Source of the DNA: a virus
Lineage: Duplodnaviria; Heunggongvirae; Uroviricota; Caudoviricetes
IMG/VR virus record: IMGVR_UViG_2563366802_000015
Reading direction: 5' to 3' (one strand)
Length of the DNA stretch: 10,148 bases
Under the pieces are notes generated by a model. The model saw only the letters and a program-made list of their open reading frames with translations. It had not been told where the DNA came from and ran no database searches. Shown here piece after piece: positions 1 through 10,148 of this stretch. Position numbers and translations under genes: made by a program. Positions within the stretch are counted from its first letter, which is position 1. Each line of letters begins with the position of its first letter.

Positions 1-1011
1 TTATAACGTCACTCCGCCTTTTAGAGGATTCAGTGCGACGGCATTTTGCAGGTAGTCAGGCGCAAGGTGCGCATAGGCCATCGTCTGCTGAATGCTCGCA
101 TGTCCCAGAATCTGTTGCAGTGCGATTATATTGCCCCCATTCATCATGAAATGGCTTGCGAATGTATGCCGCAGGATGTGGGTTGCCTGATTGGGTGGTA
201 TATCTGGCTTCACTCTGCGTAAAATCCCGCAAAACTTCTCATAATCAACTTTGAATAATTTAGCGCTGGCCTCCTCTTTAACTTTTTTCTCCAGTTCCTC
301 AGAAATCGGCACGGTTCGCTTTTTACCGTTTTTGGTTTTCAGGAAGGTAACCCTGCAATTTGTAATCTGTGCTGGTTTTAGCGTGGCAACTTCCGTCCAT
401 CTTCCTCCAGTGCTCAGACATAAAAGTGCGACAAGTAAGTCATCACCATCCAAAACATTTAACAGTTTTTCGATTTCTGCTTTTTCCAGGAACGTCATTT
501 CAGGGTTGGCCTCCGCCAGTGGCGGCAGTCCGTGAATTGGGTGTTGCCCGGAAAATTCATCCAATTGAATTAATTTTGTGAACATGCCGGATAATCGGTA
601 CATGTCACGGTTTATCGTTGCGGCACTGATACCATCACGTAGTCGCATGGAACGATAATCCATCAAAGCTCTTTTGCTCATCCGGCTCACTGGTATATCA
701 CCTATGCCGCTGATGGTTTTGAGCAGATGATTAAACTCTTTTGTTCCATGCTCGTGGTTTTGCCCGTGATATTTCCACCAGATGTCCAGCAACTCACTCA
801 AAGTTCTGCGATCTGCTCGCTGACCTGCCCATTCTTTCTGGCTGGCGTAGGCGATTGTGTATCGCTCAAATGCTACAGCCTCAGCTTTTCTTTCAAATTT
901 CCTGCGGATGCGTTTTCCGTCGCGACCGCGAGGTCTAATGTCCACTTCATAGCGTCCATCATCGAGCTTCTTAATTGACATAAGAAAGCCCTCTGACGCT
1001 GTATTCACCAT
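1..1011 (-). CDS. int: Phage tyrosine integrase (P2 Int-like site-specific recombinase)
   Basis: 336-aa minus-strand ORF ending TAA at 1-3. The C-terminus has the tyrosine-recombinase catalytic signature (HILRHTFASHF ... LGHASIQQTMAYAHLAPDY, i.e. the R..H..R..Y box). The N-terminus (KKLDDGRYEVDIRPRGRDGKRIRRKF) matches P2-family integrases as I recall them. Length agrees with P2 Int (about 337 aa). An internal in-frame ATG at 981 is preceded by a GAGGG Shine-Dalgarno and is an alternative start. Confidence 0.9.
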   Translation of the reverse strand: MVNTASEGFLMSIKKLDDGRYEVDIRPRGRDGKRIRRKFERKAEAVAFERYTIAYASQKEWAGQRADRRTLSELLDIWWKYHGQNHEHGTKEFNHLLKTISGIGDIPVSRMSKRALMDYRSMRLRDGISAATINRDMYRLSGMFTKLIQLDEFSGQHPIHGLPPLAEANPEMTFLEKAEIEKLLNVLDGDDLLVALLCLSTGGRWTEVATLKPAQITNCRVTFLKTKNGKKRTVPISEELEKKVKEEASAKLFKVDYEKFCGILRRVKPDIPPNQATHILRHTFASHFMMNGGNIIALQQILGHASIQQTMAYAHLAPDYLQNAVALNPLKGGVTL

Positions 1012-1050
1012 CTTGGTAACAAATAGTGAAAATGTAATGTTTATAGAGTG

Positions 1051-1344
1051 TTAACCAGTCTGTTTTTCGGAGTGGTCTGATTCTGTTGGTTTTTGCCCAA
1101 TGTGTGCGAGAGCCGGCGCGATCTGACCAGCTTGTGGTGACGTATCACCAGTCATTAACCAGAGCGTATATTTTTTAAATAAAGGCGTATTTGTGACTCG
1201 CATAACGATGCTGAGACCAGGGTCTTTATGCCCACTTTCGTAATTTTTGACTGTTCCTAGAGCTATCCCGCTAATTTCGCTGAATTTCGCCTGTGTTAAG
1301 CCTTCTGCTTTCCTAATCGCTTTCAGTTTTTCGAATGTCTGCAT
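1051..1344 (-). CDS. C: P2 C-type immunity repressor (small HTH repressor)
   Basis: 97-aa minus-strand ORF immediately upstream of int and divergent from cox. It has an HTH-like N-terminus (LTQAKFSEISGIALGTVKNYESG) and a C-terminal tail (KYTLWLMTG...GQIAPALAHIGQ) closely resembling phage P2 C repressor (99 aa) as recalled. Position and size fit the P2 lysogeny module. Confidence 0.85.
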   Translation of the reverse strand: MQTFEKLKAIRKAEGLTQAKFSEISGIALGTVKNYESGHKDPGLSIVMRVTNTPLFKKYTLWLMTGDTSPQAGQIAPALAHIGQKPTESDHSEKQTG

Positions 1345-1373
1345 TTGACAGTAACCTATTGGTGACTTATATT
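1345..1373 (+). promoter_or_regulatory. Candidate rightward early promoter (Pe-like): -35 TTGACA, 17-bp spacer, -10 TATATT
   Basis: TTGACA at 1345-1350 and TATATT at 1368-1373 with exactly 17 bp between them, oriented toward cox (ATG 1497). The -35 abuts the start codon of the divergent repressor gene, as expected for a face-to-face P2-type switch. Confidence 0.45.
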
Positions 1374-1400
1374 CCCGTCAAAAGGTTGTGTATTGGTGAC
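1357..1400. promoter_or_regulatory. Perfect 10-bp direct repeat TATTGGTGAC (1357-1366 and 1391-1400) flanking the candidate -10; candidate repressor operator half-sites
   Basis: Two identical 10-mers 34 bp apart, one in the promoter spacer and one just downstream of the -10. P2-type C repressors are known to bind direct repeats flanking the -10 of Pe. Assigning these as the operator is inference. Confidence 0.35.
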
Positions 1401-1416
1401 CTTTTGAGTGTGTTAG

Positions 1417-1457
1417 CCAGTCCCTAGAAAGGACAGGGGCGACCTAGAAGGGACTGG
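1417..1457. repeat. Composite symmetric element: 8-bp inverted repeat CCAGTCCC/GGGACTGG enclosing imperfect direct repeats CCTAGAAAGGA / CCTAGAAGGGA
   Basis: 1417-1424 is the reverse complement of 1450-1457. Inside it, 1423-1433 and 1443-1453 are near-identical direct repeats. It lies in the cox 5' leader and could be a Cox, IHF or repressor site, or part of the leftward promoter region. Confidence 0.3.
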
Positions 1458-1496
1458 ATCTAATAAGGGTAACACGAAAGCAAAAAGGGCTAATCA

Positions 1497-1769
1497 ATGG
1501 AAGTCAATGACTATGTGATTCAGTACCCGATTGATGCGGTACATACGGTTAAGTTTGCAGAGTTACTTGGTAAGCCAGAAACGGCTGTAGTCAAGATGGT
1601 AAAAGAGAATAAATTGCCAGTTATTGAGCTTCGTGATCCAAGTAAGCCGAACGCCCGTGTCGGTGAGAAGTGGGTTTTCATTCCAGAGTTTAATCGCGCT
1701 GTACGAGAGGCGTTTTATAACCGACCAGTTGAACAGCGTGATGCATGGCTTTTGTGGATGGGGTTGTGA
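1497..1769 (+). CDS. cox: Cox-like excisionase / transcriptional switch protein
   Basis: 90-aa ORF, first gene rightward of the switch region, ATG preceded by AAAGGG at suitable spacing. Size and sequence pattern (KLPVIELRDPS...GEKWVFIPEFN...RDAWLLWMGL) resemble P2 Cox (91 aa) as recalled. Confidence 0.8.
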   Translation: MEVNDYVIQYPIDAVHTVKFAELLGKPETAVVKMVKENKLPVIELRDPSKPNARVGEKWVFIPEFNRAVREAFYNRPVEQRDAWLLWMGL

Positions 1770-1771
1770 TT

Positions 1772-1942
1772 ATGAGTGAACCGCGTTGTATTGCTCAGTT
1801 ACTGCGTAACGAAAGCCCCAGGGCGATTGACTTCACCATCACCCACGGTAAGGGGCGTAAGGGAATCATTATCCGCACCAAAAAACAGAGTCCGTTAAAA
1901 AAGGCTCTGACCTTTCTGAAAAGCCGGAGGGTATGGAAATGA
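1772..1942 (+). CDS. Small basic hypothetical protein (positional equivalent of P2 orf78)
   Basis: ATG at 1772 directly after the cox stop (1767-1769), ending at 1942 and overlapping the start of B. An alternative in-frame ATG at 1745 lies inside cox. There is no recognisable domain, and the real start is uncertain. Confidence 0.35.
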   Translation: MSEPRCIAQLLRNESPRAIDFTITHGKGRKGIIIRTKKQSPLKKALTFLKSRRVWK

Positions 1943-2439
1943 CAGTGATGACGCTCAATCTCGTTGAAAAACAGCCAGCAGCTATGCGCCGGATAATTGG
2001 TAAGCATCTGGCCGTCCCTCGCTGGCAGGAGACATGCGATTATTATAATCAGATGATGGAACGCGAACGGCTAACGGTTTGCTTCCATGCGCAGTTAAAA
2101 CAGCGTCACGCAACGATGCGTTTTGAAGAAATGAACGACGTCGAACGTGAACGGCTGGTTTGTGCAATTGATGAATTGCGTGGGGCATTCTCAAAACGCC
2201 GTCAGGTTGGCGCAAGTGAGTATGCATATATTAGTTTTTTAACAGTCAGTCAGCGTCGTACTTTATTTATGCATGCCGGATTGACTGAAAAAGAATTCAA
2301 CCAGCCATACTGGCGAATTAATGAAGAATTATGTTACTGGCGTGATGCTTTATTCCGTGCATTACGTGAATTATTCAGCCTGTTTGAGTATGCACCGACA
2401 ATTCTGACGTCGGTAAAACCAGAGCAATATCTGCATTAA
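1939..2439 (+). CDS. B: P2 B-like replication protein (helicase-loader/lagging-strand factor)
   Basis: ORF in the conserved position between cox and the small ORFs upstream of A. Starting at ATG 1939 gives 166 aa, matching P2 B, with GGAGG at 1926-1930 eight nt upstream. The ORF track's 1933 start would have only 2 nt of spacing. Confidence 0.75.
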   Translation: MTVMTLNLVEKQPAAMRRIIGKHLAVPRWQETCDYYNQMMERERLTVCFHAQLKQRHATMRFEEMNDVERERLVCAIDELRGAFSKRRQVGASEYAYISFLTVSQRRTLFMHAGLTEKEFNQPYWRINEELCYWRDALFRALRELFSLFEYAPTILTSVKPEQYLH

Positions 2440-2502
2440 GTAATTAACCAGAGTTTTTAACGCACTTAATCGTGCGGGGCTTCTTTTTGCCTGGAGAAAG
2501 TC

Positions 2503-2727
2503 ATGCATACAGTTTCTGAAAATCAGTGCGGTAAATACGCATTACTGCTGCAACAGGCCAGAACCGAAGCACAGGCCGACGCAGCGACGCGCTTTTCTTC
2601 TCATCTTGACGCCATGATTCGCCACATCACAAAGGCGGAGTTATCCCGCGTGGAGATAGTCGAGCTGCTCAGTCAGGAGTCGGAAAAATTTCACAATATC
2701 GGATTGTCTCGCGGGGAGGTGCTTTGA
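2503..2727 (+). CDS. Hypothetical early-operon protein (P2 orf80-like position)
   Basis: 74-aa ORF with ATG preceded by GGAGA. Its stop overlaps the next start (TGATG), indicating translational coupling. No recognisable motif. Confidence 0.6.
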
Positions 2728-3029
2728 TGTCCTGTTCTCGTTCAGTTGTATTACTGAATAACGCCTTAAAAATCGCCGTTATGAAAAATGGCGATTTATC
2801 TCTTATTCAACTTGGTCTTGATAAAGAAAAACGCGAAATAACTGAGTCTGTTATCGCGATTTATCAGAACGAATTAAATCTCCTGTCTGATGTGGTCAAT
2901 TTACTTGTTAAACGCGCTGTATTTCACAAGAAAATCTCCTCCGTGGATGAACTGACAAAATTAACAACAGAAATTGCCAGCTATTGCGCTGATGAATTTA
3001 AAAAACTTAACGACAAAAGGAGCTGGTAA
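2727..3029 (+). CDS. Hypothetical early-operon protein (P2 orf81-like position)
   Basis: ATG at 2727 overlaps the upstream TGA by 1 nt. The ORF ends TAA at 3027-3029, overlapping the next ATG. The ORF track's 2724 start is a TTG one codon upstream. Confidence 0.6.
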   Translation: MSCSRSVVLLNNALKIAVMKNGDLSLIQLGLDKEKREITESVIAIYQNELNLLSDVVNLLVKRAVFHKKISSVDELTKLTTEIASYCADEFKKLNDKRSW

Positions 3030-3253
3030 TGCCGGACAACGTAGATTTTATTCAGGAACAACAGGCTGAATTACTGGAGCGTCAGATTAACGCGGCAAGG
3101 GTAAAACATTGCGGTGCTTCTGCGCTGGTTTGCGAAGAGTGTGACGCGCCAATACCTGCTGCCCGTCGTGCGGCTTATCCGTCAGCCACGCGTTGTGTTT
3201 CCTGTCAGTCAGTCTTTGAAGCAAAAAACAAACATTACCGGAGAACGGCATGA
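3029..3253 (+). CDS. TraR/DksA-family C4-type zinc-finger protein (P2 orf82-like)
   Basis: 74-aa ORF with a four-cysteine motif CEEC-x17-CVSC near the C-terminus, typical of the TraR/DksA zinc-finger family. AAAGGAG Shine-Dalgarno upstream; start overlaps the previous stop (TAATG). Confidence 0.7.
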   Translation: MPDNVDFIQEQQAELLERQINAARVKHCGASALVCEECDAPIPAARRAAYPSATRCVSCQSVFEAKNKHYRRTA

Positions 3254-3525
3254 GTATTCGTATTGAAATTGGCGAACGTTATGTCGTTACCAGTGACAGC
3301 TTTCAGTTTATTCTCCACGAGAAAAAGAGAGCGGAAAGCGGTAAAAACGCCGGTCAGGAATGGCTGGCGGTGGTTGGTTATTACCCGAAATTAAGCCAGC
3401 TCGTTTCCGGCCTGATGCATCACGATATTCTGACCGGAAGCGCAAAATCTTTTGCTGATTTAAACGCGCAGGTTGAGCAACTCAGCAAGCGTTGTTCAGA
3501 GGCTTTTGGCTCACATGGACGTTAA
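3250..3525 (+). CDS. Hypothetical early-operon protein (P2 orf83-like position)
   Basis: 91-aa ORF with ATGA start/stop overlap with the preceding gene and GGAGA upstream. Its 3' end overlaps the start of gene A. Confidence 0.6.
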   Translation: MSIRIEIGERYVVTSDSFQFILHEKKRAESGKNAGQEWLAVVGYYPKLSQLVSGLMHHDILTGSAKSFADLNAQVEQLSKRCSEAFGSHGR

Positions 3526-5788
3526 AGCCTCCGGGCGTTTTGTCCCTCCGTCAGCATTTGCCGCAGGCACCGGTAAGACGTTTACCGGTGCTTATGCATG
3601 GAACGCGCCACGCGAGGCCGTCGGGCGCGAAAGACCCCTTACACGTGACGAGATGCGTCAGGTGCAAGGTGTTTTATCCACGATTAACCGCCTGCCTTAC
3701 TTTTTGCGTTCGCTGTTTACTTCACGCTATGACTACATCCGGCGCAATAAAAGCCCGGTGCACGGGTTTTATTTCCTCACATCCACTTTTCAGCGTCGTT
3801 TATGGCCGCGCATTGAGCGCGTGAATCAGCGCCATGAAATGAACACCGACGCGTCGTTGCTGTTTCTGGCAGAGCGTGACCACTATGCGCGCCTGCCTGG
3901 AATGAATGACAAGGAGCTGAAAAAGTTTGCCGCCCGTATCTCATCGCAGCTTTTCATGATGTATGAGGAACTCTGCGATGCATGGGTTGATGCGCATGGT
4001 GAAAAAGAATCGCTGTTTACGGATGAGGCGCAGGCTCACCTGTATGGTCATGTTGCTGGCGCTGCACGTGCTTTCAATATTTCCCCGCTCTACTGGAAAA
4101 AATACAGTAAAGGACAGATGACCACGAGGCAGGCATATTCTGCCATTGCCCGTCTGTTTAACGATGAGTGGTGGATTAGTCAGCTTAAAGGCCAGCGTAT
4201 GCGCTGGCATGAGGCGTTACTGATTGCTGTCGGGGAGGTCAATAAAGACCGTTCTCCTTATGCCAGTAAACATGCCATTCGTGATGTGCGTGCGCGCCGC
4301 CAGGCAAATCTGGAATTTCTTAAATCGTGTGACCTTGAAAACAGGGAAACCGGCGAGCGCATCGACCTTATCAGTAAGGTGATGGGCAGTATTTCTAATC
4401 CAGAAATTCGCCGGATGGAGCTGATGAACACCATTGCCGGTATTGAGCGTTACGCCGCCGCAGAGGGTGATTTGGGGATGTTTATCACGCTGACCGCGCC
4501 GTCAAAGTATCACCCGACACGTCAGGTCGGAAAAGGCGAAAGTAAAACCGTTCAGCTTAATCACGGCTGGAACGATGAGGCATTTAATCCAAAGGATGCG
4601 CAGCGTTATCTCTGCCGTATCTGGAGCCTGATGCGCACGGCATTCAAGGATAATGATTTACAGGTCTACGGTTTGCGTGTCGTCGAGCCACACCACGACG
4701 GAACGCCGCACTGGCATATGATGCTTTTTTGTAATCCGCGCCAGCGTAACCAGATTATCGAAATCATGCGTCGCTATGCGCTCAAAGAGGATGGCGACGA
4801 AAGAGGAGCCGCGCGAAACCGTTTTCAGGAAAAACACCTTAACCGGGGCGGTGCTGCGGGGTATATCGCGAAATACATCTCAAAAAATATCGACGGCTAT
4901 GCACTGGATGGGCAGCTCGATAACGATACCGGCAGACCGCTGAAAGATACTGCCGCGGCTGTTACCGCATGGGCGTCAACGTGGCGCATTCCGCAATTTA
5001 AAACGGTTGGCCTGCCGACAATGGGGGCTTACCGTGAACTACGCAAATTGCCTCGCGGCGTCAGCATTGCTGATGAGTTTGACGAGCGCGTCGAGGCTGC
5101 ACGCGCCGCCGCAGACAGTGGTGATTTTGCGCTGTATATCAGCGCGCAGGGTGGGGCAAATGTCCCGCGCGATTGCCAGACTGTCAGGGTTGCCCGTAGC
5201 CCGTCGGATGACGTTAACGAGTACGAGGAAGAAGTCGAGAGAGTGGTCGGCATTTACGCGCCGCATCTCGGCGCGCGTCATATTCATATCACCAGAACGA
5301 CGGACTGGCGCATTGTTCCGAAAGTGCCGGTCGTTGAGCCTTTGACTTTAAAAAGCGGCATCGCCGCGCCTCGGAGTCCTGTCAATAACTGTGGAAAACT
5401 CACCGGTGGTGATACTTCGTTACCGGCTCCCACACCTTCTGAGCACGCCGCAGCAGTGCTTAATCTGGTTGATGACAGTGTTATCGAATGGAGTGACCCG
5501 GAGGTCGTGAGGGCGCTCAGAGGTGCATTAAAACACGGTCGGAGAACGCCAAATCGTCAGCAAAGAAACGGAAGCTCGTTAAAACCACATGAAATTGCAC
5601 CATCGGCCAGACTGGCCCGGTCGGAACGAATGCAAATTACCCGTATCCGCGTTGACCTTGCTCAGAACGGTATCAGGCCGCAGCGATGGGAGCTTGAGGC
5701 GCTGGCGCGTGGCGCGACCGTAAATTATGATGGGAAAACGTTTTCATATCCGATTTCTGATGGTTGGGCGGGATTTGAAACAAACTAA
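3515..5788 (+). CDS. A: Rolling-circle replication initiator endonuclease, phage P2 gpA family
   Basis: Long ORF of 757 aa from ATG 3515 (the track's 3473 is an upstream TTG). It has an HUH motif (PHWHMMLF, nt 4709-4723) and paired catalytic tyrosines in YIAKY (Tyr codons 4862-4864 and 4874-4876), as in the P2 A / phiX174 A superfamily. Size and position after orf80-83 match P2 gene A (about 761 aa). Confidence 0.92.
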   Translation: MDVKASGRFVPPSAFAAGTGKTFTGAYAWNAPREAVGRERPLTRDEMRQVQGVLSTINRLPYFLRSLFTSRYDYIRRNKSPVHGFYFLTSTFQRRLWPRIERVNQRHEMNTDASLLFLAERDHYARLPGMNDKELKKFAARISSQLFMMYEELCDAWVDAHGEKESLFTDEAQAHLYGHVAGAARAFNISPLYWKKYSKGQMTTRQAYSAIARLFNDEWWISQLKGQRMRWHEALLIAVGEVNKDRSPYASKHAIRDVRARRQANLEFLKSCDLENRETGERIDLISKVMGSISNPEIRRMELMNTIAGIERYAAAEGDLGMFITLTAPSKYHPTRQVGKGESKTVQLNHGWNDEAFNPKDAQRYLCRIWSLMRTAFKDNDLQVYGLRVVEPHHDGTPHWHMMLFCNPRQRNQIIEIMRRYALKEDGDERGAARNRFQEKHLNRGGAAGYIAKYISKNIDGYALDGQLDNDTGRPLKDTAAAVTAWASTWRIPQFKTVGLPTMGAYRELRKLPRGVSIADEFDERVEAARAAADSGDFALYISAQGGANVPRDCQTVRVARSPSDDVNEYEEEVERVVGIYAPHLGARHIHITRTTDWRIVPKVPVVEPLTLKSGIAAPRSPVNNCGKLTGGDTSLPAPTPSEHAAAVLNLVDDSVIEWSDPEVVRALRGALKHGRRTPNRQQRNGSSLKPHEIAPSARLARSERMQITRIRVDLAQNGIRPQRWELEALARGATVNYDGKTFSYPISDGWAGFETN

Positions 5789-5899: not shown

Positions 5900-6949
5900 T
5901 TGATTAAGGTTGTTGATTTATTCTGTGGCGCGGGTGGCTTGACTCACGGTCTTCAGAAGTCGGGGCTTAATGTAGTTGCAGGTTATGATATAGATGCAGC
6001 CTGTCGATTTGCCTATGAGACAAATAATAAATCACTCTTTGTCCAGAAAAGTGTTACAGACATTGAGGACGGCGAATTAGTTAAATATTTCGAAGGAGCG
6101 AAGGTTCGAGTTTTGGCTGGTTGTGCCCCATGCCAACCTTTTTCAAGCTATACCAATAGTGCTAAATTAGGGGTAGTACGTTCAAAAGATAAAAGATGGT
6201 CTTTGCTTTATAGCTTTGCTAAGCAAATTAAATTTGCAAAGCCAGATATTATTACAATGGAAAACGTTCCCCGAGTGGTGAATCATAAGGTTTTTAAGGA
6301 CTTCATTAAGTCTCTTAAAAATGATGGCTATTTTGTTTGGTATGGGGTGGTGTTTTGTCCAGACTATGGAATGGCACAAAGTCGTTCAAGATTAGTGTTA
6401 TTGGCATCAAAATATGGAGAAATAGAAATAATTCCACCAACTCATGAGAAGAATGATTATAAAACGGTGCGAGATATAATCGGTAATCTTCCTGAAATTA
6501 GTGCCGGTGCTGTTCACGCTGGAGATAAACTACATCGCTCTGCATCATTATCTGATATTAATATAAAAAGAATAATGGCATCAAAACCTGGTGGAACATG
6601 GCGTGATTGGCCAGAAGAGCTAAGAGCAAAATGTCATACAAAAGAAAGTGGTTCTACATATACTGCTGTATATGGGAGAATGTGTTGGGATAAACTTGGA
6701 CCGACAATTACAACTCAATGTATTGGATATGGGAATGGACGCTTTGGGCACCCTGTCCAAAATAGAGCATTAAGTTTAAGAGAGGCTGCGCTATTACAGT
6801 CATTCCCAGAAAAGTATGAGTTTTGGCCTGATGATGTAAAAATTGAAATGAGAACAGTTGCGCGTTTAATAGGTAATGCTGTTCCTGTTAGGCTTGGTGA
6901 GGTCGTAGGTGAAACTATTTTAAAACATTTGTCAGAAATGAATATTTAA
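5900..6949 (+). CDS. DNA (cytosine-5)-methyltransferase (Dcm-like C5-MTase, probable modification subunit)
   Basis: Canonical C5-MTase motifs in order: motif I DLFCGAGG (5921-5938), motif IV PCQ (6128-6136), motif VI ENV (6260-6268), motif VIII QSRSR, then a variable region and motif X GNAVPV near the C-terminus. Proposed start is TTG at 5900, 6 nt after a perfect AGGAGG (5888-5893). The ORF track's 5798 start is an upstream in-frame TTG that would add 34 non-conserved residues. Confidence 0.9.
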   Translation: MIKVVDLFCGAGGLTHGLQKSGLNVVAGYDIDAACRFAYETNNKSLFVQKSVTDIEDGELVKYFEGAKVRVLAGCAPCQPFSSYTNSAKLGVVRSKDKRWSLLYSFAKQIKFAKPDIITMENVPRVVNHKVFKDFIKSLKNDGYFVWYGVVFCPDYGMAQSRSRLVLLASKYGEIEIIPPTHEKNDYKTVRDIIGNLPEISAGAVHAGDKLHRSASLSDINIKRIMASKPGGTWRDWPEELRAKCHTKESGSTYTAVYGRMCWDKLGPTITTQCIGYGNGRFGHPVQNRALSLREAALLQSFPEKYEFWPDDVKIEMRTVARLIGNAVPVRLGEVVGETILKHLSEMNI

Positions 6950-6961
6950 AACTTATGTCAT

Positions 6962-6985
6962 CCCCCCTGTCAAAAAACAGGGGGG
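6962..6985. terminator. Bidirectional intrinsic terminator hairpin between convergent genes
   Basis: Perfect 9-bp GC-rich stem (CCCCCCTGT 6962-6970 pairing with ACAGGGGGG 6977-6985) with a 6-nt loop, flanked by A/T-rich sequence on both sides. It lies between the MTase stop (6947-6949) and the minus-strand gene stop (6991-6993). Confidence 0.6.
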
Positions 6986-6990
6986 TATAA

Positions 6991-8195
6991 TTAGATTCCC
7001 TCAACTATTTTCATAATTCTAGCTGCATCATTCTTTTTGTCTTGATATTCAGCATAGGCTTGTTTTGATTGCACGATTAGGTCATTATATGTCAATATTT
7101 TTCCATTGATAGAAAGTAATTGCATATTTATAAAGTGTTGGTTCTCTTGTAAATATCCAGAGCCAACCAGGAATATTACTTCTATATGCGGTATATTTCC
7201 ACCTGGGCAATTTTTAGGGTTATTGGAGAACCATTGTGTCGTTGCCTGTACATATTTATTACCTTGTGCGACTAGGTTCATTATATCTGGGTGCACTTTA
7301 GGTCGTTTCATCTCAATAATTACATGCTTGCCAGAAACGGTTTTGAAAGCGATATCAATACGAGCACCGCTAGCAGCATCAGGGTTTATCTGTTTTAGTT
7401 CCTTGGTCAATGTTTGCTCCATAACAGATGTGCCTGTGACTCTTTCCCATGAAGGATCCAATAACCATAAATGATCATATAAATACATTTGTACAGCTCT
7501 TTCAAGCTGATTTTCATCAGTTATTTTTTGGAATTTTTCAATTACTTTAAGGCGTTGCGAAGTAATTTCATAAAACATGCTTGCTTCAATGTCATTGACA
7601 GATGCAAATACATCTTTAAAATTTTCTGATTGAAGGTTGCTTATTTTATCTAATGCATCAAGGTTGTCTTGAATTCTAAGTCTTTCAAAGGCTAATACCG
7701 TATTTTTTAATACGGTTTTTCTTGCTGCTTTTTGTTCTTCCTCATTACCAGAAAAACGGAATGTGTTTACTCGTCCAATTAACTTTTCGGCACTTTCTCT
7801 CTCATGTTTTTTGAGAGAATTCAGCCATTCACTTACTATTGGAGTATTGCTTTTAACTTCATTTACTCCTTTTTCGCGTCTCCATTTATCCCAATCTTTA
7901 TCGATTAGTTGTAGCGTTCTTTCCAGAAAACCTTTAAGTACAGGGTATCTTGGATCATTCTGTTGTAGTTTTTGACGAGAAGATGTTGCCATATCAGGCT
8001 TTTCGTTATCATCTAGAAAATCGGCGACTATTTCACCGACCAGATAATTGGTGAATACTTTAGCACTTCCAAATTCTAATAATATGTCCTCCTCAAAAAC
8101 ACGTCCGTGAGAGATTACAGTAATGCTGTTGTTAGATATTTCAGGGTCTTTCTTTAACTGTGATGGCTTAACTACACTGCCAATGTACCCACTAA
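6991..8195 (-). pseudogene. C-terminal fragment of IS5-disrupted GHKL-ATPase/nuclease gene (carries the PD-(D/E)xK-like motif)
   Basis: The minus-strand ORF 6991-8265 starts inside IS5; its native part begins at the IS5 boundary (8195). It contains a restriction-endonuclease-like core, GARIDIAF-x11-VIIEMKRPK (Asp codon 7354-7356, Glu 7312-7314, Lys 7306-7308). Its frame is continuous with the upstream fragment once IS5 plus one target duplication is removed. Confidence 0.75.
8192..8195. repeat. IS5 target-site duplication, left copy (CTAA)
   Basis: CTAA immediately outside the left IS5 terminus and identical to 9391-9394. IS5 is known to make 4-bp duplications at YTAR targets. Confidence 0.8.
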
Positions 8196-8211
8196 GGAAG
8201 GTGCGAACAAG
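8196..8211. repeat. IS5 terminal inverted repeat (transposase-proximal end)
   Basis: GGAAGGTGCGAACAAG matches the IS5 terminus as recalled and is a 15/16 inverted match to 9375-9390. Confidence 0.85.
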
Positions 8212-8218
8212 TCCCTGA

Positions 8219-9244
<1,026 letters not shown>

Positions 9245-9374
9245 AAACTGGGGATAACGCCTTAAATGGCGAAGAAACGGTCTAAATAGGCTGATTCAAG
9301 GCATTTACGGGAGAAAAAATCGGCTCAAACATGAAGAAATGAAATGACTGAGTCAGCCGAGAAGAATTTCCCCG

Positions 9375-9390
9375 CTTATTCGCACCTTCC
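9375..9390. repeat. IS5 terminal inverted repeat (distal end)
   Basis: CTTATTCGCACCTTCC, whose reverse complement GGAAGGTGCGAATAAG matches 8196-8211 with one mismatch. Confidence 0.85.
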
Positions 9391-9394
9391 CTAA
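9391..9394. repeat. IS5 target-site duplication, right copy (CTAA)
   Basis: CTAA immediately outside the right IS5 terminus, identical to 8192-8195. Confidence 0.8.
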
Positions 9395-10148
9395 CTTTTA
9401 CATCTTTTCCTTCAAAGGTAATAGTATTTGGTAATATGTTTTTTTGTGTGATGTTTGTGCAGGATTTTATCCTTTCAGGGTCGGATTCGCCAAATTCCCA
9501 AATGAACTCGAGATCTGAAAGGAAATCTCTATCTGCCGGTGTAATATCGGTCCCATTAATTTTAACTGTAAAGTTATGGTTGGGGCCAATAATGCTAAAT
9601 CGACGAGCTATTCGCTTTCTGAGGTAAGTTTGAGTCCTATCAATGGCTTTTTTTAGTTCAAATAATTTAATTGTAGTGCCGTAAGCAAGATTTTCGGGTA
9701 TTTCAAGGGAGTCAGCAATATAGTTTTTTGATTCTTTGATACTTTGCTGTAAATCTTTGACATCTACCTCAAAGGCCTGAGGCTGTTCCCCCTTTTTGTA
9801 CGAATAAACTTGGATTTTATTGGCAAGTGAAAACATGGCAAGCTTACCAATACCTTTTCTGCCCATAACTTGACGTTTTAGATGATCGCTTTTGGCTCTT
9901 CCATGTTCCCTGCGAGCATAACCGACTTTTAGGAACTTATTAATAATGTCATCTTTAGACATGCCATGACCATCATCTTTAATGATGACCTCTCCTTTCT
10001 CAACATCAAGTGTAATTTCTACATTTTGAGCATCTGCATCCCATGCATTTGATATAATCTCAGTTAGTACCGCGGGAGTATTGGAATAGAGACTCATCCC
10101 TAGGTGATTTAGCACATTCAAATCAATTTTAATTTCGAAATCTGACAT
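9391..10148 (-). pseudogene. N-terminal fragment of IS5-disrupted gene: GHKL-superfamily (MORC/HSP90/MutL-like) ATPase domain
   Basis: Minus-strand ORF starting ATG at 10146-10148. GHKL Bergerat-fold motifs occur in canonical order: N-box EIISNAWDA (about aa 30-38), G1 box DDGHG (aa 58-62), G2 box GRKGIGK (aa 96-102) and GTT (aa 157-159). The annotated ORF runs to 9282, but its last 36 codons (9282-9390) are IS5 sequence, so the native part ends at the IS5 junction. Confidence 0.75.

Follow-up and report, generated by a model that had tools for sequence, protein, structure and literature searches.

The restriction enzyme R.HgiDII is an isoschizomer of SalI and recognises the sequence GTCGAC. 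Its domain layout was described by Orlowski & Bujnicki (2008), who counted R.HgiDII among the Type II restriction endonucleases and found an N-terminal GHKL domain followed by a C-terminal domain that was 'unassigned to any known fold'. Proteins termed paraMORC3 were described by Iyer, Abhiman & Aravind (2008; PMC2292703). There they consist of a GHKL domain, an S5 domain and a C-terminal RecB-like domain of the restriction-endonuclease fold with an E-D-ExK signature. They are widespread among proteobacteria and are linked to methyltransferases and restriction-modification contexts. Proteins with HATPase_c_3, a middle domain and DUF4263 were later classed as type 1D Shedu (Gu et al.). Adams et al. 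(2025) validated such a protein, VcSduA from Vibrio cholerae, and noted that these proteins were 'previously annotated as paraMORC3'. Phage defence was lost in both the ATPase mutant E27A and the nuclease mutant K557A of VcSduA, where K557 is the equivalent of Lys548 in the protein studied here.

The canonical Shedu protein SduA recognises the ends of DNA and assembles into tetramers. In the E. coli protein EcSduA, the residues E226, Q230, D269, E283, K285 and Q314 line the Mg2+ site, and alanine substitutions of E226, D269, E283 and K285 abolished cleavage and defence. In the Shedu literature, the proteins that combine GHKL and DUF4263 are regarded as single-gene sensors, with speculation on the sensing of misfolded proteins.

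Here, we analysed a DNA stretch of 10,148 nucleotides from a tailed phage (IMG/VR record IMGVR_UViG_2563366802_000015), which is called the window in the following. A preliminary description, made from the raw sequence and without tools, had pointed to a PD-(D/E)xK-like catalytic core in the C-terminal fragment of a GHKL protein and proposed this protein as a candidate nuclease effector.

Reconstruction of the restriction gene

In the window, the restriction gene is not an intact open reading frame, since an IS5 element is located inside codon 252. The gene was reconstructed by removing IS5 (8196-9390) together with one copy of the CTAA duplication, which resulted in an in-frame open reading frame of 652 amino acid residues. 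Over all 652 residues, this reconstruction shares 100% identity with an intact protein of E. coli that is listed in RefSeq as a BbrUII/HgiDII family restriction enzyme (WP_001279022.1); E. coli CFSAN061771 is one of its carriers. The NCBIfam equivalog NF050001 was matched with 751.4 bits, compared to a cutoff of 550, and residues 4-651 of the reconstruction were aligned to positions 1-658 of the 659 profile positions. The PADLOC model for Type II restriction endonucleases matched the reconstruction at 2.3e-91. The positions of the domains and of the other features are listed in Table 1.

Table 1. Features of the restriction-modification locus in the window. Residue numbers refer to the reconstructed restriction protein.
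Feature	Position	Strand	Remarks
GHKL (Bergerat-fold) ATPase domain, residues 1-190	9579-10148	-	Pfam HATPase_c_3 2.3e-25; Hsp90/TRAP1 fold matches
Middle domain, N-terminal part, residues 191-252	9395-9578	-	translation, AF2
Middle (S5/Hsp90-middle-like) domain, C-terminal part, residues 252-333	7951-8195	-	AF2, Foldseek; invariant R325
All-helical linker, residues ~334-478 (~145 residues)	7516-7950	-	DSSP of the full-length AF2 model
Predicted C-terminal PD-(D/E)xK (Shedu/NucS-like) nuclease domain, residues ~479-652	6994-7515	-	stop codon 6991-6993
Nuclease-core segment GARIDIAFKTVSGKHVIIEMKRPK	7297-7368	-	residues 527-550; beta-2 and beta-3
Glu483...Gln487 (E-x3-Q), motif I	7489-7503	-	first helix of the nuclease domain (479-490 in the full-length AF2 model); spacing as in EcSduA E226/Q230
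Asp532, PD-(D/E)xK motif II (predicted metal ligand)	7354-7356	-	aligns with EcSduA D269 (HMM alignment to 8ps4_A)
Glu546-Met-Lys548, motif III (ExK)	7306-7314	-	aligns with EcSduA E283 and K285
Gln562-x3-Tyr566 (QxxxY), RecB/NucS-type motif IV	7252-7266	-	helix after beta-3
C5 cytosine DNA methyltransferase, 349 aa, intact	5900-6949	+	TTG start behind AGGAGG; Pfam DNA_methylase PF00145 1.1e-55; RefSeq annotation
IS5, 1195 bp	8196-9390	+	16-bp terminal inverted repeats GGAAGGTGCGAACAAG / CTTATTCGCACCTTCC; within codon V252 of the restriction gene
CTAA target-site duplication, left copy	8192-8195	.	right copy 9391-9394
IS5 transposase open reading frame	8228-9244	+	IS5-family model, 365 bits; strand opposite to the restriction gene
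Chimeric open reading frame, 424 aa	6991-8265	-	ATG within the end of IS5, which contributes the N-terminal ~24 residues; then middle domain, linker, nuclease
Chimeric open reading frame, 288 aa	9282-10148	-	GHKL and part of the middle domain; 37 IS5-derived C-terminal residues

As in R.HgiDII, an N-terminal GHKL ATPase and a separate C-terminal domain are both present (Pfam, AF2). The reconstructed protein has in common with the HgiDII/BbrUII family the full-length match to NF050001, this two-part layout and a C5 methyltransferase as a partner, whereas the copy in the window differs by its interruption by IS5. The order of a GHKL, an S5-like and an E-D-ExK domain that PMC2292703 gives for paraMORC3 is matched as well. 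The assignment to paraMORC3 is based on this architecture and on the annotation that the depositor gave to the corresponding gene of phage PhiR44_1.

The GHKL motifs are all intact and are invariant in the homologues, comprising E30/N34, D58-G60-G62 and G96-R-K-G99-x-G101-K102. In the middle domain, we observed an A-x-S-S-R-Q motif at residues 321-326 (about 7972-7989, minus strand), in which R325 is invariant in 73 diverse members. By analogy to the lysine in the QTK loop of GyrB, R325 may be the basic residue with which the S5/transducer domain reaches the ATP site of the GHKL domain.

Predicted fold of the C-terminal domain

The preliminary description had located the catalytic core at 7300-7360, corresponding to residues of about 532-548 downstream of a long helical linker. 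The position was a few bases off the exact span on the minus strand (Table 1), and the residue numbers agree with the IS5-excised reading frame, where the triad consists of D532, E546 (codon 7312-7314) and K548 (codon 7306-7308). Between the aspartate and the Glu-x-Lys, a spacing of 13 residues had been noted. When counted in the translation of GARIDIAFKTVSGKHVIIEMKRPK, D532 and E546 are 14 positions apart, with 13 residues in between. The linker was also recovered, as a helical stretch of the AF2 model at residues of about 334-478.

The full-length AF2 model (pLDDT 78.5), analysed with DSSP, divides into the GHKL domain, a middle domain of mixed alpha/beta structure, this helical stretch and the nuclease domain. 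When the full-length model was submitted to Foldseek, matches to Hsp90/TRAP1 dominated, brought about by the GHKL and middle domains. Since this search was uninformative on the nuclease, residues 476-652 were modelled separately, with a pLDDT of 83.4 and a pTM of 0.77. In this model, the core is formed by a helix (479-492) and three strands at 509-513, 530-536 and 542-547, where D532 is located on the second strand, E546 on the third and K548 next to its end. A helix at 556-576 with Q562 and Y566 follows, then a strand at 589-595 and a further helix, strand and helix. The alpha-beta-beta-beta-alpha-beta core with the aspartate on beta-2 and the ExK on beta-3 is the arrangement that defines the PD-(D/E)xK superfamily (AF2). 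The top structural matches to the C-terminal model were all PD-(D/E)xK nucleases, and the closest solved fold was the E. coli SduA. Structure prediction, which had been proposed as a check, placed the triad within a restriction-endonuclease-like sheet core (AF2, Foldseek). From the placement in the secondary structure and the fold matches, we infer that the catalytic side chains cluster in space.

The sequence comparisons were less clear. A sequence-profile search of the PDB with the C-terminal alignment returned SduA with E=0.28 and a spurious EVH1 match, and nothing else. The SduA match is non-significant alone and was used for residue mapping only. In the alignment, ...GaRlDiayktisGkyiiielkrP... 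is placed opposite ...NRFIDIALVDANGNLDIIEVKKP... of SduA, so that D532, E546 and K548 correspond to D269, E283 and K285 after correction for a 3-residue offset in the chain numbering. Further active-site equivalents of EcSduA, E483-x3-Q487 and Q562, are present in the corresponding helices.

The Pfam scan of the reconstructed protein detected the GHKL domain only and no nuclease family, SduA_C included, at E<=1; thus, the protein itself lies below the SduA_C threshold. Among its relatives, SduA_C (PF14082) was matched by 7/30 at E<=0.1 and by 13/73 at E<=0.01. Two relatives exceeded the gathering score of 27 bits (28.1 and 27.5) and the others reached 25-26 bits. PDDEXK_4 was matched by 10/73 relatives. 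The NucS model aligned to residues 530-571 only (E=0.052) and, with 12.6 bits, stayed below its equivalog cutoff of 216. The archaeal mismatch endonuclease NucS/EndoMS differs from the protein studied here by an unrelated N-terminal DNA-binding domain and has neither a GHKL ATPase nor a methyltransferase partner; the identity is 15%. Taken together, the sequence models agree weakly with a nuclease fold.

Conservation of the active-site residues

A D...ExK pattern may also arise by chance in a region that is not a nuclease. In shuffled versions of the restriction protein, a strict regular expression for D...ExK was present in 5.9% and a loose one in 36%; the bare motif by itself is weak evidence. 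Also compatible with a chance match is the lack of a direct match between the protein itself and a nuclease family of Pfam. The motif is raised above chance by its conservation among homologues; a lack of conservation had been named in the preliminary description as a ground for refutation. No exception to D532, E546 or K548 occurred in 30 full-length homologues (44-100% identity) or in 73 full-length cluster representatives (32-43% identity).

To extend the analysis, 1.84 billion representatives were searched exhaustively with a profile, which yielded 613 relatives of the C-terminal domain. From these, 151 cluster representatives were aligned, which are 28-100% identical to the C-terminal domain studied here, with a median of 34%. 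The triad was near-invariant in this set (D532, 150/151; E546, 151/151; K548, 150/151). Among the non-gap residues of motif I, E483 was found in 146/146 and Q487 in 138/148, and for motif IV both Q562 and Y566 were found in 150/150. W495, E511 and R530 had at most one exception each in the 151 representatives. E483-x3-Q487 and Q562-x3-Y566 are the motifs I and IV that flank the triad in nucleases of the RecB/NucS/Shedu type. The near-perfect conservation, the placement on beta-2 and beta-3 and the top structural matches, all of which are PD-(D/E)xK nucleases, leave next to no probability for a chance match, and we regard this reading as effectively refuted.

The C-terminal domain could also be an inert restriction-endonuclease fold that serves for DNA binding or oligomerisation, with the cleavage occurring elsewhere or not at all. 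Catalytically inactive PD-(D/E)xK domains do occur in other proteins. However, E483, D532, E546, K548, Q562 and Y566 are essentially invariant in the 151 representatives, and both EcSduA and VcSduA depend on the equivalent residues. In addition, no other nuclease domain was detectable in the protein or in the cassette. We therefore consider an inert domain very improbable and favour a catalytic PD-(D/E)xK core. That the GHKL protein is a candidate nuclease effector is supported by conservation, predicted fold and family membership, and it had already been published.

The methyltransferase partner

An intact gene for a C5 cytosine DNA methyltransferase is adjacent to the restriction gene and convergent with it. 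Related loci at different distances showed the same arrangement. A convergent C5 methyltransferase of about 350 residues was found beside the relatives in Gallibacterium (50% identity), Alcanivorax (45%) and Shewanella (59%), so that the methyltransferase was adjacent in 4/4 loci examined, across 45-100% identity. Since the same convergent pair is present in distant relatives, the pairing is conserved and not a local accident. We conclude that the restriction gene and the convergent C5 methyltransferase gene are a two-gene restriction-modification cassette. The settings of the relatives vary: a P2-like prophage in Gallibacterium, a prophage with a GPA replication gene in Shewanella and a chromosomal location in Alcanivorax.

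Within the 41-bp gap between the convergent stop codons, we noticed an 8-bp G/C-rich inverted repeat, CCCCCCTG ... CAGGGGGG, with a loop of 8 nucleotides (6962-6985). The hairpin may function as a bidirectional terminator or as a transcript stabiliser; a clear T-tract was not found on either strand. The G+C content of the cassette (5900-8195 and 9395-10148) is 35-38% versus 49% for the early phage genes (1-5788), which is consistent with a recent acquisition from a donor of lower G+C. The window contains 0 GTCGAC sites, where about 2 were expected, and this difference is not significant.

The methyltransferase bears on whether the protein is instead a stand-alone type 1D Shedu nuclease and not a restriction enzyme with sequence specificity and methylation sensitivity. 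Its GHKL domain would then respond to a cue of infection, as in VcSduA, and the methyltransferase would be functionally independent of it. With E. coli SduA as the closest solved fold, with some relatives passing Pfam SduA_C and with the classification of GHKL and DUF4263 proteins as type 1D Shedu by Gu et al., this reading has a basis. VcSduA expressed alone protects E. coli, with no methyltransferase mentioned, and stand-alone paraMORC3 genes are noted by Iyer et al. (PMC2292703). However, the equivalog that is matched at 751 bits is named for the Type II enzymes HgiDII/BbrUII, and R.HgiDII, with the same GHKL and C-terminal layout, is counted among the Type II restriction endonucleases. Moreover, Shedu is a single-gene system, whereas in 4/4 loci (45-100% identity) the restriction gene is accompanied by a C5 methyltransferase of equal size in convergent orientation. 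A stand-alone Shedu nuclease is therefore unlikely, and a restriction enzyme that is paired with its methyltransferase is the preferred reading. Also, the view of a sensor for misfolded proteins does not fit well with a clade that is linked to a methyltransferase and named as Type II.

We considered whether a V. cholerae homologue that is 61% identical to the reconstructed protein is the published VcSduA. Its motif-I glutamate is residue 45 and not 27, and VcSduA is therefore compared here only on the basis of its shared architecture.

The IS5 insertion and the prophage setting

Many complete E. coli genomes carry the locus without IS5 at 100% identity, and their version is shorter by exactly 1199 bp. 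The disrupted allele was absent from 5,426 complete E. coli genomes, none of which covered at least 80% of the query, and the junction of IS5 and the gene had no exact match among species-representative genomes. Since the insertion cuts the nuclease domain off from the ATPase, the split restriction gene in the window is a pseudogene and its enzyme almost certainly inactive, and activity is not expected from this locus.

The insertion generates two chimeric reading frames (Table 1). A promoter scan detected no sigma-70-like promoter that is directed from IS5 toward the nuclease fragment, and the sites were no more numerous than in shuffled sequences. Shedu nuclease domains that are stripped of their N-terminal regulator are toxic. 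It is a speculative thought that the 424-residue protein, if expressed, could act as a deregulated nuclease that is tolerated only thanks to the intact methyltransferase.

The region 1-5788 of the window is a P2-like early region and encodes the integrase, the C repressor, Cox, B, orf80-83 (including a TraR/DksA zinc finger) and the replication endonuclease A. In the intact genomes, the cassette is located between the replication gene A and the portal gene Q of a P2-like prophage that is integrated beside cpxP. In P2, this position is occupied by tin and old. In phage PhiR44_1, the cassette is present at 99.9% identity and annotated as 'Dcm protein' and 'ParaMORC3'. A P4 satellite setting was ruled out by the RefSeq and phage annotations, where int, C, cox, B, orf80-83 and A are followed by portal and terminase.

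Discussion

Our results suggest, with a probability of roughly 0.87, that the segment comprises motifs II and III of the PD-(D/E)xK core of a BbrUII/HgiDII restriction enzyme, which is paired with a C5 methyltransferase and carried as cargo of a P2-like prophage, immediately behind its replication gene A. In such a system, the methyltransferase would mark and protect the sites of the host. Judging by the family name, the target site is probably GTCGAC. The GHKL/middle module would dimerise on ATP, as in other GHKL enzymes, and the binding and hydrolysis of ATP probably clamp the DNA and license the nuclease. Such a coupling to ATP is supported by VcSduA, which has the same architecture and needs both E27 of the ATPase and K557 of the nuclease for defence. 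In the active site, E483, D532 and E546 are predicted to hold Mg2+ and K548 to activate the water, with Q562 and Y566 completing the site. The nuclease would then cut incoming unmethylated DNA.

Our results support the fusion of a nuclease to a GHKL ATPase, which is already known from the prediction in 2008, from the survey of type 1D Shedu and from the mutagenesis of VcSduA. The preliminary description had thus picked out a real catalytic core from the raw sequence. Our analysis makes two small additions. First, the C-terminal fold of the HgiDII family, which was unassigned in 2008, is now explicitly assigned to PD-(D/E)xK on the basis of the predicted model. Second, a clade which has been seen as a Shedu sensor-nuclease is named and organised like an orthodox restriction-modification pair. 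In the source genome, the P2-like prophage has kept the methyltransferase gene intact, whereas its restriction gene is almost certainly dead.

As a tentative proposal, to which we give less than even odds, the type 1D Shedu/paraMORC3 proteins, or at minimum their methyltransferase-linked clade, may be classical Type II enzymes, methylation-sensitive and site-specific, that are gated by an ATP-driven GHKL clamp. If true, this would link Shedu mechanistically to restriction-modification, and self would be told from non-self by methylation and not by DNA ends or by 'misfolded protein sensing'.
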